Shown here in pieces: positions 7,000 through 33,115 of a DNA stretch of 34,897 nucleotides. The position numbers were made by a program, and so were the translations under genes. Source of the stretch: Candidatus Woesearchaeota archaeon (GTDB taxonomy: Archaea > Nanobdellota > Nanobdellia > SCGC-AAA011-G17 > JACPIM01); contig CAZELK010000009.1 of assembly GCA_964513145.1 (NCBI GenBank), positions 1 through 34,897 on the forward strand. The letters are read 5' to 3'. A model generated the notes under the pieces. That model was given only the letters and a program-made list of their open reading frames with translations. It had not been told where the DNA came from and did not search any database. Each line of letters starts with the position of its first letter. Within the stretch, counting starts at the first letter, position 1.

Positions 7000-7112
7000 A
7001 ATAATAACACCTCTTCAATAAAGTCTCAAATTTAGTATATAAAGAATAGTTATAACTTAAAAATAACAACTATAGATAATTCTGTTAATTCCTGACTTCG
7101 CCACTTAGATAG

Positions 7113-7225
7113 TTTTCCGTTAACGCTTTTTCACAAAAAAGGGTTCTTTGGTTAAGCTTTTTCATTTTTCCGTGAACGCTTTTCGTAAAAGGGTTCTTTT
7201 AATGAAACTTTTTTCTAAAAAGCTT
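7113..7225. repeat. Head-to-tail cluster of ~4 palindromic mini-repeat units
   Basis: Units of form TTTT(G/C)NT(T/G/A)AA(G/A)CTTTT-N1-4-AAAAG(C/G/T)TT. 7113-7163 matches 33023-33073 at 50/51 nt. Confidence 0.85.
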
Positions 7226-7370
7226 CTTGACATCTTTTTATCCATTATTAGTCAAAGATAGTTTAGAGATTATATAAATATTATTAACTAAATTTTACAA
7301 CTATCTGTCAAGTTAAACATATATTTTTTGAGTTATTATTCATTTTTTCAGTATTTTTAGTAATGATTAT

Positions 7371-8698: not shown

Positions 8699-8808
8699 CT
8701 TTTTTTGGTTAAGCTTTTTCGTTTCTCCGTTAACGCTTTTCATAAAAGGTTCTTTGATTAAACTTTTCCTAAAATTTAGTTTTTGATTAAACTTTTTTTA
8801 AAAGTTTA
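8699..8808. repeat. Cluster of ~4 palindromic mini-repeat units filling a convergent intergenic gap
   Basis: ttttggttaagctttttc / ccgttaacgcttttcataaaaggtt / ctttgattaaacttttcctaaaattt / ttttgattaaactttttttaaaagttta; the cluster ends next to the TAG of 8809-10401. Confidence 0.85.
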
Positions 8809-10401
8809 CTATAGTGGCGTAATCATCCCATGAGCTTTCTTGTAAACATCATACAAAATTGAAGCCATGCTTTCTGCTTGTTTTTTTGCAGCACCCTTTT
8901 CATTGTCTTCCTGTTCTTTTGTTAAAGGTAAGGCTTTTGTGTCTGGTTTGGATTTTATATTAAGAATTTCTTTAAAACCTTCATAAACAGATTTGAATGG
9001 AACAAAAAGATTGTCTTGTTCTTTCTTCTCTTTTAAAAATTCAATCGCCCCGTCAACAGTTGCACTTTTTTTTAAAGCTTCAATTGCTTTGTCTTTTCCT
9101 ACTTTTGCTTTTTCCATAATAGAAATAACATCATCCTTGTTTACAGGAATGTTTTTTTCATCAGCTTCCTCTAAATATTTAAATAAAGAGTCTCCTAAAG
9201 ACTCTAAAGAAGCATTCAAGGAATTTAATAAGGCAAAATCTTCTTTTTCTAATTTATTTTTATAAGAACTAATTTCTTCTTGTGTTGCAACATACGCCTT
9301 GATAAAAACTTCTGTTCTTCCCATATGCACAGCCCCTCTTTGATATTCTTTTTGAAAAGACATTTCAGGCAATGCAACAAATCTTATTTTAACAAAAACA
9401 CATGGAAAGTATTTTTTAAATTCTCTGTCAACTTCAAAACCATTTGGTGTATTTTCAGTATAAGCAGTTCTTATCCCTAATAATTCAAGTTCTACCTTGC
9501 TTGTTTCAAAAGAACTGACTAAATGTGGGTCTTCAAATTTTTCATCATATCCCATTTGCAGCCTGGTTATATTCCTTAAATAAGGCTTCAGCCAGTTGAT
9601 ATACATCCTTATGACATTAAAATGCTGTCTTAAATATTTAAGTGTAAAATTTTTTCTGTCTCTTAATTCTTTTTCAGTTTTTTCCCTCCATACTAAAAAT
9701 TGTGCTAATTTTCTTGATAAAACCTCAAGAACTTTAATGTTAATCCCCTGCTTTTTCCAGGGCTCTAGCATCTTGCTGATGTCATTTTCTTTTTGTGGAT
9801 TAATTCTATAAAATAAATCTGGTAAAATGACAAAGCCAACCTGGCTAGCCAGTCCAGTGACAGATCCGGGATTTTTTGCTCCGCCTTCAACTAAATCTAT
9901 CCATACTGATTTCAATGCAACACTTAAAGAATCATCTTTTCTTTTGTAGCCATCATAATATTCCAGTCTTTCATCTAAAATTCTTAATTCTCTAATGATC
10001 TGAAATAAATCTTTTATCATTTTTCCTATAGTTGCTAAATAACCAGAAACTTTTTCCTGTTGAACAGATTTTCTTTGTTCTATGCTTCCCCAAAAACTGG
10101 AAGATTCTCCAGCAGAAAATATGTCTTTAAGTTTTTCAACCTTGCCTCTGTCACCGCTTAATCTTAAGCCGAAATCCTCCTTATTCTCCATAAACCTGAG
10201 AAACCAATAATAATTAGCCTCAACCCCGCTTCCAAAATTATCTATAATTAATCTATATCCCCCTTTAGGAACCTTGCCCTTAATCTCTTCTCCTAAAGGT
10301 TTAACTTCCTCTTTTTTTTCCTCTTCTTTTTTAAGACCTAAAAAATTATCTAAAATAGAGCCAAAGAATTTTGGTTTTTGTTGAGTAATTTGATCAGCCA
10401 T
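8809..10401 (-). CDS. Uncharacterised helical protein with a UBA-like insert
   Basis: Long ORF (~530 aa) with ordered motifs (EANYYWFLRFM, WIDLVEGGAKNPGSV, LKYLRQHF) and a UBA/NAC-C-like segment at ~9028-9150. Confidence 0.7.
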   Translation of the reverse strand: MADQITQQKPKFFGSILDNFLGLKKEEEKKEEVKPLGEEIKGKVPKGGYRLIIDNFGSGVEANYYWFLRFMENKEDFGLRLSGDRGKVEKLKDIFSAGESSSFWGSIEQRKSVQQEKVSGYLATIGKMIKDLFQIIRELRILDERLEYYDGYKRKDDSLSVALKSVWIDLVEGGAKNPGSVTGLASQVGFVILPDLFYRINPQKENDISKMLEPWKKQGINIKVLEVLSRKLAQFLVWREKTEKELRDRKNFTLKYLRQHFNVIRMYINWLKPYLRNITRLQMGYDEKFEDPHLVSSFETSKVELELLGIRTAYTENTPNGFEVDREFKKYFPCVFVKIRFVALPEMSFQKEYQRGAVHMGRTEVFIKAYVATQEEISSYKNKLEKEDFALLNSLNASLESLGDSLFKYLEEADEKNIPVNKDDVISIMEKAKVGKDKAIEALKKSATVDGAIEFLKEKKEQDNLFVPFKSVYEGFKEILNIKSKPDTKALPLTKEQEDNEKGAAKKQAESMASILYDVYKKAHGMITPL

Positions 10402-24371: not shown

Positions 24372-25816
24372 ACCCTTATTGAATAATCAGAAACCCCGAT
24401 AAAATGATGGTATTTTTGAAGCACAGGATCAATTTGTTCTCTTAAAAATTCTTCAGTTTGTCTTTCAGCAGCTCCTGAAAATTTCTCTGGATGCAGAAGC
24501 AGATTATCTAAAAATTGCTTGTCAACCCCGACCCTGGAATCATTTGCAAGTCTTTCAAATAAATCATTTGTTTTTCCTTCTTCTTTTATTTTTTTGCCTG
24601 CAGCCTGGCTATGTTCCCTAAGTAATTCATGTATTTCTTGTCTATCTCTGTTTTTAGAAGCTTCAATTAAAATTTCTTCTGTAGCAATAAAAGGAAGTTC
24701 TTCATCTAAATGCTTTTTAATTTGGCTTGGATAAACTACCATGCCATTGGTAATATTTAAATATAATTTTAAAATAGCATTTGTTAGTAAAAATGTTTGC
24801 GGTATATCCATTCTCCTTATTCCCGAATCATCTAATGTTCTCTCAAAAAACTGGCTGGCATGTGTATGTGCAAAATTCAAAGGAAGACCCATTAATTTTC
24901 TTGAAAATCCGCACATTCTTTCACTCCTCATTGGATTCCTTTTATAAGCCATAGCAGAACTCCCAACTTGTTTTTCTTCAAAAGGCTCTTCTTGCTCTTT
25001 CAAAAGAGCCAAAACTCTTAAATCAAATCCAAACTTATGTGCAGATTCTCCGATTGATGCTAAAGATTCAGCAATTATAGTATCAAGCCCCCTTGTATAA
25101 GTTTGCCCAGTTACAGGAAATATTTTATTAAATCCTAATTTTTCTGCAATTTTTTTATCTAATTCCTTTACCTTCTCATAATTCCCGTCAAATAATTCTA
25201 AAAAACTGGCTTGTGTTCCAACAGTGCCCTTTGCTCCCCTTGCCATAATTAAATCCTCAGCATGTTCAATCTGGTTCAAATTAAATAGCAAATCAAGTAA
25301 ATATAGTGTGTTTCTTTTTCCTGCAGTTGTTGGCTGTGCTGGCTGCAAATGTGTATATCCCAAAGTAACTAGCCCCCTATATTTTTCAGCAAAATTTCTT
25401 AAATTATAAATTGTATTTATTAATTGTTTTTTTATAATAAGTAAGCCTTCTCTTTGTTGAATTAATTCAGTATTGTCAGTCACAAAAGCAGATGTAGCCC
25501 CAAAGTGAATTATTTTCTTTGCTGTTGGACAATGTCTTCCAAATTCATCTATGTGAGCCATTACATCATGTCTAATTTCTTTCTCGCGTTTGGCAGCAAA
25601 TTCATAATCAATTGGTTCTTCTAATGCTTTGTTCATTTCTAAAACCATATCTTTGGAAATTCTATTTAACCCCAATTCTAGTTGTGATTCTGCTAAAGCA
25701 GTCCAGCATTTTCTCCAGGTAGTATATTTAAAATCATCAGAAAATAATTTTTGCATATCTTTGTCAGTATAACGGCTTACCAATGGCTCTTGATAAATAC
25801 TATGGTCAATCATCAA
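24368..25816 (-). CDS. purB: Adenylosuccinate lyase
   Basis: PLVSRY, RHDVMAH, IHFGATS, GYTHLQPAQPTT, KGTVGTQASF, GSSAMAYKRNP signature. Confidence 0.95.
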   Translation of the reverse strand: MMIDHSIYQEPLVSRYTDKDMQKLFSDDFKYTTWRKCWTALAESQLELGLNRISKDMVLEMNKALEEPIDYEFAAKREKEIRHDVMAHIDEFGRHCPTAKKIIHFGATSAFVTDNTELIQQREGLLIIKKQLINTIYNLRNFAEKYRGLVTLGYTHLQPAQPTTAGKRNTLYLLDLLFNLNQIEHAEDLIMARGAKGTVGTQASFLELFDGNYEKVKELDKKIAEKLGFNKIFPVTGQTYTRGLDTIIAESLASIGESAHKFGFDLRVLALLKEQEEPFEEKQVGSSAMAYKRNPMRSERMCGFSRKLMGLPLNFAHTHASQFFERTLDDSGIRRMDIPQTFLLTNAILKLYLNITNGMVVYPSQIKKHLDEELPFIATEEILIEASKNRDRQEIHELLREHSQAAGKKIKEEGKTNDLFERLANDSRVGVDKQFLDNLLLHPEKFSGAAERQTEEFLREQIDPVLQKYHHFIGVSDYSIRV

Positions 25817-26062
25817 ATTAAAATAAAATATTAGCTATTTAAATAATTTGTAACTAGAAAATATAATTGTAGTATATGGTTATTCTTTCAGTTACTTTGT
25901 CTTTCATAAGAATTCTAAAGACCCTTACATTTTTAATCTTTTTGGTAAATCTTTAAAATAATCGCCGCTGCCCACCATATGCTAGTTGCATAGGTTTGTA
26001 GAACTTAAATTGTAAGGTCTATCTCAATAAAATTTATATAGAAACTTCTAATATAAAATATT

Positions 26063-26319
26063 ATGTATGAAATTTATCCCGCAAACAAAAGGGTTGAAAA
26101 GAAACTAGAAGAAATAAAAAATTCTAGAAATGATATTCTTGAAAAATTAAAAAATCTGAAAGAAAATCCTCGAGAAAATTCTGGTGCCCATCCTTTACAT
26201 GGACGTTTGCAAAGTAAATGGGTTGTTGGTTAGGCTCAAATTTAAGAATTATTTACCTAATTGACGATAAAAATAAAAGAATAGATGTTATAGCCGCAGG
26301 CTCGCATAAAATATACTAA
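26063..26319 (+). pseudogene. Frameshifted RelE/YoeB-like toxin
   Basis: MYEIYPANKRVEKKL...AHPLHGRLQSKW, then a 1-nt deletion relative to the intact copy (TGG-GTTG vs TGGAGTTG) gives a stop at 26231-26233. The shifted frame continues CWLGSNLRIIYLID...AGSHKIY*. Confidence 0.85.
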
Positions 26320-26468
26320 ATATCTAATTTTTTGAATTTAACTCCTTTCTTAAGATTTTCTTCGCTTTCTCTAATTTGATCCATTAATTCTTCATCTTGA
26401 AGAATTTCAATAGTTTCTTTCATACCTTCATATTCCTTTCTTGAAATTACAATTACGTCCTGTTTCAT
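26316..26468 (-). CDS. Minimal YefM/Phd-like antitoxin (50 aa), not in the ORF track
   Basis: MKQDVIVISRKEYEGMKETIEILQDEELMDQIRESEENLKKGVKFKKLDI*; matches the YefM C-terminal pattern. Its stop overlaps the toxin stop. Confidence 0.75.
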   Translation of the reverse strand: MKQDVIVISRKEYEGMKETIEILQDEELMDQIRESEENLKKGVKFKKLDI

Positions 26469-26511
26469 ATGTAATTAACAGATTTTAAAGTTTTTAAGAG
26501 TTTTGGTCTGC

Positions 26512-26563
26512 TTTAAACAAAATGGAACTACGCAATATGAATAACACCGCGACTCGAAGTTTC
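26512..26563. repeat. att-like duplicate of the tRNA-Ser 3' end plus trailer
   Basis: 48/52 nt identical to 27325-27376; the core 26519-26556 matches 27332-27369 at 37/38 nt. Confidence 0.85.
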
Positions 26564-26657
26564 CTATCATGTCGAGTAACTGGGATTTTAGTATGTAAAA
26601 GTTCTGAACTTAGAAATTCAATAAGATATATAAATAATTGTAATTTATTTTTTATTA

Positions 26658-26921
26658 ATGTATGAAATAGTAACTAAAAGTAGGAAAGCTGAAAAGCAAT
26701 ATTATGAAGCTCTTCAATCAAATTCAACCATATCAGAAAAATTAGAAAAACTAAAAGAAAATCCAAGAGATTGTTTAGATGCTCATAAATTAAAAGGAAA
26801 ATTAGCTGGTTTGTGGAGTTGTTGGTTAGGCTCTGATCTAAGAATAGTTTACAGAATTAATGATGAAACAAAAGAAATTATAGTTTTTTCAGTAGGAACT
26901 CATAAAGAAGTTTATAGATGA
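26658..26921 (+). CDS. RelE/YoeB-family toxin (intact)
   Basis: LKENP...AHKLKGKLAGLWSCWLGSDLRIVYRI...IIVFSVGTHKEVY. Confidence 0.85.
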   Translation: MYEIVTKSRKAEKQYYEALQSNSTISEKLEKLKENPRDCLDAHKLKGKLAGLWSCWLGSDLRIVYRINDETKEIIVFSVGTHKEVYR

Positions 26922-27082
26922 GTTTTAAGTTTCCAGCTCTTCACTCCCTTTTTTTCAGCTTCTTTACTTTCTTTTATAGCTTCCATCATTTCTGGATCTC
27001 TAAGTATACCGACTTCTTCTAAAAGTTCTTCATATTCTTTTTTTGGTATTCTAACCATTTCTTGCATTTCTTGTTTTGCCAT
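26912..27082 (-). CDS. Minimal YefM/Phd-like antitoxin (56 aa), not in the ORF track
   Basis: MAKQEMQEMVRIPKKEYEELLEEVGILRDPEMMEAIKESKEAEKKGVKSWKLKTHL*; overlaps the toxin 3' end by 10 nt. Its upstream region resembles that of 26316-26468. Confidence 0.75.
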   Translation of the reverse strand: MAKQEMQEMVRIPKKEYEELLEEVGILRDPEMMEAIKESKEAEKKGVKSWKLKTHL

Positions 27083-27371
27083 AAGTTTATATAGATTTCA
27101 ACATTTTTAACCTTTTTGGTCAAATTTTAAGAAATTACTTTGTTGTTATAATATCTTCTAAATTTACGGAAAATTCTTCTTATTTGTTTAAACCCAGTTC
27201 CTTCATTAATTTTATTTGTTCTAGTTCTGTCATTCTTATTTCTGGCTTTTCATCTTCTATATAATGATCAATCTATTCTTTTTTTAATTTCTGAACCATA
27301 CAATATGCATAGTTCTGCTTACTATTTAAATAAAATGGAACTACGCAATATGAATAACGCCGCGACTCGGA

Positions 27372-27420
27372 CTTTCAATAACTTTTAACGTTTTTGATAA
27401 AACTTTTTTTAAAAGTTTTC
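27372..27420 (-). other. tRNA intron 3 (49 nt, T-loop 59/60)
   Basis: Central helix TTCA/TGAA and bulges AA|G and AG|T; contains an AAAACTTTT-AAA-AAAAGTTTT hairpin. Confidence 0.88.
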
Positions 27421-27451
27421 TTTGAACCGAGAGGCCTTGTTAGGCCTGGCT

Positions 27452-27493
27452 TCCTTGAATATTATTTTTGCTTAAGCTTTTTCTAAAAGCTTA
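27452..27493 (-). other. tRNA intron 2 (42 nt, canonical 37/38)
   Basis: Central helix CTTG/CAAG and bulges AG|T and GA|A; contains a TAAGCTTTT-AGA-AAAAGCTTA hairpin. Confidence 0.9.
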
Positions 27494-27510
27494 CTCAAGG
27501 CCAGTGCAAT

Positions 27511-27560
27511 CTCCTGTAAAATTTTTAGTTTTTTGCTTAAGCTTTTTCTAAAAAGCTTAT
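27511..27560 (-). other. tRNA intron 1 (50 nt, D-loop 20/21)
   Basis: BHB with central helix CCTG/CAGG and bulges GT|A and AG|A; contains a TAAGCTTTTT-AG-AAAAAGCTTA hairpin. Confidence 0.88.
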
Positions 27561-27605
27561 ACCAGGTTATGCGATCGCGGCATTAATAAAAAAGAAGTTC
27601 TTCAA

Positions 27606-27613
27606 TTTATAAA
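27606..27613 (-). promoter_or_regulatory. TATA box of the tRNA-Ser gene
   Basis: TTTATAAA 25-32 nt upstream of the tRNA 5' G, with an A-rich BRE-like segment upstream. Confidence 0.7.
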
Positions 27614-27614
27614 C

Positions 27615-28772
27615 TTAATTTTTTAAGTATTTATCAAAAAATTCATAAGCTTGTTCGTGATACTTGGTAGGAAAAGCGTGTGATGCATTTGGTATAAATA
27701 AAGAAACAAAATTAGATTCATTATCTAGTCTTGAATATAACTCATTTAATGGTTTGAGCTGTGTTTCAGTTTCTTCTTTTGGAAAAATCGGGTCATTTTC
27801 AGAGTAAATAACCATTAAAGGTCTTGGTGAAATTAAAGCCAATATGCCGTTTGTTTTAACATATTTTGCTACTCCAGGTAATAAAGTTAACCAAGTATTA
27901 AAAATTCCAGTAGTATAATTCGGTCTCTGGTTAGCTACAGCATTTGATATTACTGTCGCTTTGATTCTGTCATCAAGAGCAGCCAAATACATGCATCTTG
28001 TTCCGCCAAAAGAATGTCCTATGCATCCGATTTTGTTTTTGTCAATATTTTTTAATGAATATAAATAATTCAATGCTGACAAGTCTCCCTGAAATGTAAG
28101 TCCTAAAGGAGAATGCCCGTAAACAAGCACTGCACGTACACTAAAATCTTCTAAAACTTCAGGAGAGTTTTCTGAGATTGTTGCCTTGTTCTCACCAAAT
28201 AAAGGAGCATCTATTGCTAAAACAACATATCCTCTTTCAGCAAGTTCTTTTCCATAAAATAAATCTTTGTTTCCAGCATTGCCAGCAACTTCATCTTTGC
28301 CATATTCATAAAAACCGTCATGCTGGTGCATTGCCAAAATTGCTGGTGATGGAAATGTAATGTTTTTCGGCACAAGCAAATAAGCATAAGAACGCGTTGC
28401 ACTTGAAGTATATATTTCGATCTTTTTTTGTATATATTTTCCCATGTCAACCTGGTTTATTGCATCTCTTTCTGGACTTTCTGGTGATGTAAAGGGAATA
28501 TTCATGAGCTCAGTTATTTTATCTCTTACTTTTTCATCATATTTTTCTTTGTCATCTTTGTTTCTTATTTCTTCAATATTAAATAAAGGTTTTTTGTTTT
28601 TATAAGCTTCAACTACTGCTGGAAAGATATTATAACGGTTATTGTTTTCATTAATAATAACCTTCTCTAATTGCGCTGGCTCAAATTTATCTGTATTCTT
28701 TGTATTATTTATAAATAAATATAAAAAGAAAAATAATAAAACAACAAGTACTAAATAAAAAATTTTCTTCAT
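27615..28772 (-). CDS. Membrane-anchored alpha/beta hydrolase (dienelactone hydrolase/acetyl-esterase-like)
   Basis: N-terminal TM; GHSFGG nucleophile elbow, END and SHAF triad positions. ATG 28772 has a TTTATAAA box 23-30 nt upstream. Confidence 0.85.
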   Translation of the reverse strand: MKKIFYLVLVVLLFFFLYLFINNTKNTDKFEPAQLEKVIINENNNRYNIFPAVVEAYKNKKPLFNIEEIRNKDDKEKYDEKVRDKITELMNIPFTSPESPERDAINQVDMGKYIQKKIEIYTSSATRSYAYLLVPKNITFPSPAILAMHQHDGFYEYGKDEVAGNAGNKDLFYGKELAERGYVVLAIDAPLFGENKATISENSPEVLEDFSVRAVLVYGHSPLGLTFQGDLSALNYLYSLKNIDKNKIGCIGHSFGGTRCMYLAALDDRIKATVISNAVANQRPNYTTGIFNTWLTLLPGVAKYVKTNGILALISPRPLMVIYSENDPIFPKEETETQLKPLNELYSRLDNESNFVSLFIPNASHAFPTKYHEQAYEFFDKYLKN

Positions 28773-28858: not shown

Positions 28859-28870
28859 AATTTTTAATAG

Positions 28871-28897
28871 TTTTGATAAAACTTTTAAAAAGTTTTA
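28871..28897. repeat. Single palindromic mini-repeat unit overlapping the S-layer stop codon
   Basis: TTTTGATAAAACTTTTAAAAAGTTTTA; nearly identical to the unit in tRNA intron 3 (27391-27419). Confidence 0.8.
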
Positions 28898-33021: not shown

Positions 33022-33115
33022 TTTTTCCGTGAACGCTTTTTCACAAAAAAGGGTTCTTTGGTTAAGCTTTTTCTTAAAATTAGTTTTTCCATTAAAGCTT
33101 TTTTCAAAAGGTTTA
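33022..33115. repeat. Cluster of 3 palindromic mini-repeat units filling an intra-operon gap
   Basis: Begins at the TAA of 33113-33982 and ends ~2 nt before ATG 33019; 50/51 nt identical to 7113-7163. Confidence 0.85.

Follow-up and report, generated by a model that had tools for sequence, protein, structure and literature searches.

The window, by which we mean the complete 34,897-nt stretch of woesearchaeotal (DPANN) DNA analysed here, contains on its reverse strand a tRNA-Ser(UGA) gene that is interrupted by three introns (Table 1). When joined, the four exons (21, 17, 31 and 14 nt) yield a complete type II cloverleaf of 83 nt with a GC content of 60% in a genome of 29% GC, and ARAGORN accepts this sequence as tRNA-Ser(tga), recognising a long variable arm, G73, the T-loop TTCAAAT and an acceptor stem of 7 perfect base pairs. 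The coordinates and the strand of the original prediction, which had been made from the DNA letters without database searches, are correct. The features that characterise a type II tRNA-Ser (long variable arm, G73 and a serine anticodon) are all present and are kept in the orthologs described below, and no CCA end is encoded after exon 4. The correctly spaced TATA box that had been proposed was likewise found upstream of the gene, with a TATA-like box located at -31 to -36 in eight of nine orthologs. A split or permuted tRNA was ruled out, as the four exons are colinear at a single locus with a single promoter.

Table 1. Features of the tRNA-Ser(UGA) locus on contig CAZELK010000009.1 (positions in the window) and the splicing endonuclease gene of the same genome (G000).
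Feature	Coordinates	Strand	Length	Description
tRNA-Ser(UGA) gene	27581-27358	-	224 nt	Whole gene, Woesearchaeota (DPANN)
TATA box	27606-27613	-		TTTATAAA; -32 to -25 relative to the mature 5' end
Exon 1	27561-27581	-	21 nt	Acceptor 5' strand, D-stem 5' strand, D-loop to position 20
Intron 1	27511-27560	-	50 nt	Site 20/21; AAGC-type hairpin module (27559-27530), third arm copy, CAGG+AG
Exon 2	27494-27510	-	17 nt	D-stem 3' strand, anticodon-stem 5' strand, anticodon TGA, G37
Intron 2	27452-27493	-	42 nt	Canonical site 37/38; AAGC-type hairpin module (27493-27465), CAAG+GA
Exon 3	27421-27451	-	31 nt	Anticodon-stem 3' strand, long variable arm, T-stem 5' strand, T-loop to position 59
Intron 3	27372-27420	-	49 nt	Site 59/60; AAAC-type hairpin module (27419-27391), third arm copy, TGAA+AG
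Exon 4	27358-27371	-	14 nt	T60, T-stem 3' strand, acceptor 3' strand, discriminator G73
3' flank	27325-27357	-	33 nt	Conserved with the G008 ortholog (other genus); repeated at 26512-26544
Second copy of gene end	26512-26563	-		Last 5 nt of intron 3, exon 4 and 33-nt flank; 92% identical
EndA	G000 C7:33752-34318		188 aa	PF02778 (N-terminal) and PF01974 (catalytic) in one ORF

In its unspliced form, the gene escapes detection. No tRNA was reported at the locus by ARAGORN with intron search or by Rfam at the gathering score, and the Rfam tRNA model (RF00005) gave no match there in a genome-wide search at E <= 1. The suspicion that standard annotation may miss this tRNA was therefore well founded as far as ARAGORN and the Rfam tRNA model are concerned. 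Throughout the genome, whose assembly is 98.8% complete, between 15 (ARAGORN) and 24 (Rfam tRNA model, E <= 1) tRNA genes are detectable. A bulge-helix-bulge (BHB) pipeline described below adds multi-intron genes for Val(UAC), Ala(UGC), Ile, Arg, Ser(GGA) and a CAU-anticodon tRNA with at least three introns, although this inventory is incomplete.

Neither a second tRNA-Ser(UGA) gene nor a second copy of the exon carrying its anticodon was identified in the 98.8%-complete assembly. The possibility, raised together with the original prediction, that the locus is a pseudogene backed up by another intact tRNA-Ser(UGA) gene is thus left unsupported by the genome-wide search. One match to exon 2 (C1:78459-78475) lies within a long ORF and was discarded as a chance match. 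TCA accounts for 28.8% of the serine codons in 538 long, mechanically called ORFs. The other serine tRNA genes of the genome are Ser(GGA), which contains two introns (20/21 and 37/38), and the intron-less Ser(CGA).

The 3' flank of the gene, TTGCGTAGTTCCATTTTATTTAAATA, is conserved between two genera and absent from two sister species, and its opposite strand can be read as a TATA-like box followed by ATG. The flank, exon 4 and the end of intron 3 form, with the second copy of the gene end, a 52-nt direct repeat (26512-26563 and 27325-27376), which bounds a 761-bp segment (26564-27324) encoding a RelE/YafQ/ParE-family toxin (26658-26921, plus strand) and a small ORF in convergent orientation. 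Another toxin-like unit, which is degraded, is located at 26063-26468, and no integrase gene was seen in the ORF list of 25800-27700. This organisation resembles a small cassette that was inserted downstream of the tRNA gene together with a duplicated tRNA tail.

The intron boundaries were examined by independent means. An alignment to the intron-less ortholog of G038, which belongs to another family of the same order, was conducted with cheap long gaps and without any splicing motif to avoid circularity, and placed three insertions base-exactly at the predicted boundaries. A blind genome-wide pipeline, which proceeds from acceptor-stem pairs to a T-arm, removes AT-rich gaps only where a 3-4-3 BHB is possible and submits the result to ARAGORN, recovered the gene with the same three introns. 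With pairing defined between the four exon nucleotides ending 2 nt before the splice site and the four intron nucleotides ending 2 nt before the 3' site, the central helices (CCTG/CAGG, CTTG/CAAG and TTCA/TGAA) are paired at 4/4 positions and flanked on both sides by 3-nt bulges, within which the cuts fall. Such complete pairing occurs by chance in 1.85% of windows shifted by up to 8 nt, which corresponds to about 6e-6 for all three junctions. Alignment, pipeline and shifted-window test therefore agree with the proposed introns at 20/21, 37/38 and 59/60, each with a 4-bp central helix and 3-nt bulges.

The unconstrained minimum free energy fold of the 224-nt precursor (-64.7 kcal/mol) retains the acceptor, D, variable and T stems as well as the central helices of introns 1 and 2. 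In all three introns, a 9-bp hairpin begins at intron nucleotide 1-2. Introns 1 and 3 contain a third copy of the hairpin arm near their 3' ends, with which the first arm can alternatively form a classical intron-side helix comprising 11 pairs over 12 positions in intron 1 and 10 pairs over 11 positions in intron 3, and these two of the three introns may thus be able to adopt the full hBHBh' form. The intron-side helix of intron 2 is only 2 bp long, and the exon-side helix at 20/21 consists of 2-3 bp. Folding energies favour the local hairpins over the classical helices (-7.4 versus -4.4 and -7.6 versus -6.8 kcal/mol), and the competition envisaged between a hairpin within 1 nt of the 5' splice site and the intron-side helix is therefore real. 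Runs of four to five T residues, which are potential archaeal termination signals, are present on the sense strand inside the introns.

The genome encodes one candidate splicing endonuclease, EndA. A single PF01974 match was obtained genome-wide, and a phmmer search against all ORFs revealed no paralog; additional matches in the Pfam and phmmer searches for a second subunit were weak (E 0.014 and 0.069). Its best relatives of solved structure are the M. jannaschii alpha4 enzyme (1a79) and the catalytic subunit of N. equitans (3iey_A). The alignment with the M. jannaschii enzyme spans 147 residues (42-188) without an indel, leaving the N-terminal 41 residues outside, where an unusual N-terminal feature is possible. 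Within the aligned region, broad-specificity loops of the CSL, ASL or NEQ type were not found, and a 6-residue gap coincides with the basic loop that precedes the catalytic His in N. equitans (loop position from PMC3488258). The question of the subunit type, which the original prediction had posed, can thus be answered in favour of one alpha4-like gene, and EndA looks like a plain single-unit enzyme of this type. Since introns 1 and 3 can form the full intron-side helix and the sole EndA resembles an ordinary alpha4 enzyme, the further suggestion that the competing hairpins imply relaxed substrate recognition is weakened. Relatives of this EndA were identified by tblastn in more than 200 Woesearchaeota and Nanoarchaeota metagenome-assembled genomes, the best 80 of which are 59-73% identical over nearly the full length. 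The genome also contains a gene for the RtcB ligase on C6. This gene is interrupted (C6:75368-78150; L002 and L003), with profile positions 1-44 located approximately 1.4 kb upstream of positions 49-426, the latter within an 879-aa open frame; as judged from this profile arrangement, the interruption is an intein or other intervening sequence.

A 24-nt core is identical in introns 1 and 2, whose overall identity amounts to 80%, compared with a mean of 57% and a maximum of 66% in 300 shuffles. Intron 3 matches the core at 83% of its positions, and its global identities to introns 1 and 2 (72% and 67%, respectively) lie at the edge of the shuffles; it belongs to a sister subfamily, in which AAAC arms replace AAGC and the partner arm has changed to match. 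The view that all three introns are versions of one sequence is thus strictly correct for introns 1 and 2, and intron 3 fits it at the family level.

All three introns carry a module consisting of a hairpin and an A-tail, which is also dispersed throughout the genome. As blastn-short searches with the introns at E = 10 returned mostly AT-rich noise, they were replaced by a strict regular expression and an nhmmer profile, both controlled against the reversed genome. The regular expression identified 37 copies (2 in the reversed genome) and the profile 63 matches, 38 of them at E < 0.01 (3 and 0 in the reversed genome, respectively). An intergenic copy at C2:97268 shares the identical 24-nt core with introns 1 and 2. 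The same modules occur in introns of the Val, Phe, Arg, Ala and Ser(GGA) tRNAs, and module-containing introns are located in the D-loop, anticodon loop and T-loop of several other tRNAs. The two main subfamilies of the module are distinguished by a stem pair that has changed in a compensatory manner from G-C to A-T, and copies with 93-100% identity over approximately 30 nt are found in many genomes of the order. At the level of sequence comparison, the introns are thus demonstrably homologous to a dispersed gene-end module, as anticipated by the claim that they can be traced to a genome-dispersed repeat.

While 10 of the nhmmer matches lie in recognised tRNA genes, 31 are located downstream of an ORF on the same strand, 22 of them within 40 nt. 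Modules near gene ends are predominantly in the sense orientation (20 sense-only versus 4 antisense-only), and most of them begin within a range of -2 to +5 nt relative to the stop codon. In the window, tandem stacks of two to four different modules lie directly behind protein genes on the minus strand (8700-8810, 7100-7230, 28869-28894 and 33040-33110) and include the types AAAC, AAGC and ACCC...GCGTT[A/C]ACGG; one stack begins right at the stop codon (28895) of an S-layer-like gene. BHB-like pairing around the modules passed a loose criterion in 26 of 63 cases, compared with a mean of 15.8 and a maximum of 23 in permutations. As this excess approximates the number of intron copies, it provides no evidence for BHBs at gene ends. 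A search of the 98.8%-complete genome for the Y1 (RAYT-type) transposase family PF01797 gave no match at E <= 0.1. The presence of three sense copies within one essential gene argues against the modules being efficient terminators, and an RNA 3'-end hairpin or purely selfish spread are possible roles of the gene-end copies.

Nine orthologs with zero to three introns, which provide the comparison with less interrupted genes called for by the original prediction, were spliced in silico and all identified as tRNA-Ser(tga). Their exons show compensatory changes in the anticodon stem (T-A/A-T/G-C) and in the T stem (T-A to C-G and C-G to A-T). All three introns are present in the three species of this genus, whereas G005 and G008 contain the 37/38 intron only, G007 and G013 contain the 20/21 and 59/60 introns without that at 37/38, and G038 and G042 are intron-less. 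In an aEF-2 tree, the genus is resolved as (G000,(G001,(G003,G002))) with G008 as its sister, while G007 and G013 form a separate, well-supported clade; the polarity of intron gain and loss is read from this single marker, in a tree with an unresolved backbone.

The orthologous introns end in C[AG]GGAG at 20/21 and in TGAAAG at 59/60, and Ser(GGA) and Ser(GCU) paralogs, both in this family and in others, have introns with the same 3' ends but very different interiors. At 20/21 and 59/60, the interiors comprise at least five hairpin-plus-tail types. Within the genus, the 78-nt interior of G001 at 20/21 is 92% identical to that of G013 from another genus (g7), but only 50% identical to that of the genome studied here, which corresponds to the level of shuffled sequences. 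At 59/60, the interior type of G002 differs from those of both G000 and G001. Across genera, interiors are 88-92% identical between G001 and G013 at 20/21 (L008 and L020) and between G000 and G005 at 37/38 (L006 and L009), while the aEF-2 proteins of these genera are only 70-73% identical. Such conservation of interiors is far above the expectation for neutral AT-rich DNA. This identity could be explained by selection acting on the modules, by concerted evolution involving dispersed copies or by lateral transfer via the near-identical exons. The recurrence of the same sites and 3' ends with unrelated interiors in other genera and paralogs implies that the BHB ends predate the present interiors. 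The intron sites and guide ends thus appear to be old, at the family to order level, with interiors that turn over and seem to have been replaced more than once within the genus.

Taken together, the locus probably represents a functional, single-copy tRNA-Ser(UGA) gene whose long-standing introns have been remodelled or occupied by a dispersed repeat, as opposed to three fresh births, and whose transcript would be spliced by the alpha4-like EndA and RtcB. Transcription from its own TATA promoter would yield a precursor of about 224 nt, in which each intron, built from the hairpin module, a spacer, the 4-nt guide and 2 nt, would be presented as a BHB by pairing of the guide with the four exon nucleotides upstream of the 5' site. 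The single 188-aa EndA would cut in the 3-nt bulges and RtcB would join the exons. In introns 1 and 3, the third arm copy would allow the first arm to reside either in the local hairpin or in the classical intron-side helix. The module family, which is mostly found behind stop codons in the sense orientation, would supply interiors that are swapped between module families even within a genus.

A repeat-disrupted pseudogene, with UCA codons read by another tRNA, would account for the failure of standard finders to report a tRNA at the locus and for the fragment copy of the gene's 3' end 813 bp away. It is nevertheless highly improbable, given that this is the sole UGA-anticodon serine gene of a 98.8%-complete genome in which TCA represents 29% of serine codons, that the exons are intact and conserved across nine genomes with compensatory changes, and that the promoter is conserved and the BHB geometry exact at all three junctions; these observations support a real, hidden three-intron gene. 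The original prediction regarded the introns as a possible snapshot of intron genesis, in which the repeat inserted three times into an uninterrupted gene and acquired site-matched BHB ends on each occasion. Such births would be in agreement with the 24-nt core, which is identical in introns 1 and 2 and in intergenic copies such as that at C2:97268, and with the lack of one or more introns in some orthologs. Against them, the same sites and 3' guide ends are found with unrelated interiors in other genera and in the Ser(GGA) and Ser(GCU) paralogs, the CAGGAG ending is common to old and new interiors, and the 20/21 interior of G001 is shared with genus g7 at 92% identity over 78 nt. Three independent acquisitions are accordingly not supported, given the recurrence of the sites and the exchange of the interiors, and we consider this scenario improbable, while the part of the genesis reading that relates the introns to the dispersed repeat stands.

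Alternatively, the modules could be selected functional parts, serving as a binding site, as a fold that presents the BHB or in RNA 3'-end protection, which spread by selection and not by mobility. This possibility, which we regard as conceivable although somewhat unlikely, draws on the high identity of module copies across many genomes of the order, on interiors far better conserved between genera than aEF-2, on the compensatory stem change between subfamilies, and on the fixed sense orientation at stop codons in a genome where no Y1 (RAYT-type) transposase was found. However, orthologous introns have wholly different interiors (five types) and intron-less orthologs exist, which indicates that no particular module is needed for tRNA-Ser(UGA), and the arrangement of different modules in tandem behind individual genes resembles accumulation. 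We are more doubtful still about the proposal that, in the Woesearchaeales, the module acts as a non-autonomous element, mobile or spreading by copying, that both seeds and overwrites BHB introns. Such an element might persist where its far-end sequence pairs with the 4 nt before the insertion point, a pairing that would easily arise in near-palindromic loops such as the D-loop (CCTGG), the T-loop (TTCAA) and the anticodon loop. The occupation of the same sites by different family members in orthologs provides a tractable system for allele comparison, for assays of EndA on natural variants and for the search for insertion polymorphisms.

The introns of this tRNA-Ser(UGA) have their closest counterparts in the Thermoproteales, whose tRNA genes can be interrupted by as many as three BHB introns, at both canonical and non-canonical positions (Sugahara 2008 and Fujishima 2010, as summarised in PMC4033280 and PMC8450103); three is also the published maximum per tRNA gene (PMC4033280, PMC8450103). 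The 'transposed' intron groups of Thermoproteales consist of similar introns that recur within a genome at several positions or in several tRNA species, a pattern also seen here in the 80% identity of introns 1 and 2 and in the modules within introns of five other tRNA species. Unlike in the Thermoproteales, the host is a DPANN archaeon with a GC content of 29%, most copies of the shared module lie not in tRNA genes but at protein-gene 3' ends, and EndA is alpha4-like and not a heterotetramer with a Crenarchaea-specific loop.

Disrupted tRNA genes have also been described in DPANN archaea with alpha4, (alpha-beta)2 or epsilon2 EndA (Fujishima 2011, PMC3239211; Hirata 2012, PMC3488258; Kaneta 2018, PMC5829648), including heavily tRNA-disrupted members with an alpha4 EndA, whose incomplete tRNA sets imply undetected disrupted genes (Kaneta 2018; PMC5829648). 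The present genome resembles these ultrasmall archaea in its many non-canonical and multiple introns, and differs from N. equitans in that its EndA, by alignment, lacks the basic loop before the catalytic His. This genome challenges the rule that numerous non-canonical introns call for an EndA with special loops. If the module is indeed a mobile element that seeds and overwrites introns, the lineage would also be an example of an alpha4 EndA that copes with rampant non-canonical introns. Furthermore, a genome that seemingly lacks about half of its tRNAs hides tRNAs behind multiple introns, which renders DPANN annotation and inferences about 'missing tRNAs' unreliable. In the literature searched, no description of tRNA introns built from a dispersed gene-end hairpin was found.

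Bacterial REP and BIME sequences are gene-end palindromic repeats that are mobilised by RAYT Y1 transposases. The module shares with them, as a resemblance only, the short hairpins, the fixed orientation behind genes and the frequent tandem stacks of subtypes, but differs in its archaeal host, in the lack of a detectable Y1 transposase in this genome and in the presence of copies inside spliced tRNA introns. A census of tRNA introns in Asgard archaea reported D-arm introns missed by annotators, BHB-capable sites and recurrent gains; it identified no donor or copying route and left the route of arrival open (bioRxiv 10.64898/2026.10.13.758758). If the module is a mobile or copy-spreading element of this kind, the lineage studied here would supply the missing donor and route for the arrival of archaeal tRNA introns; in contrast to the Asgard census, a candidate donor, or a shared sequence family, is visible here both inside and outside of tRNA genes.
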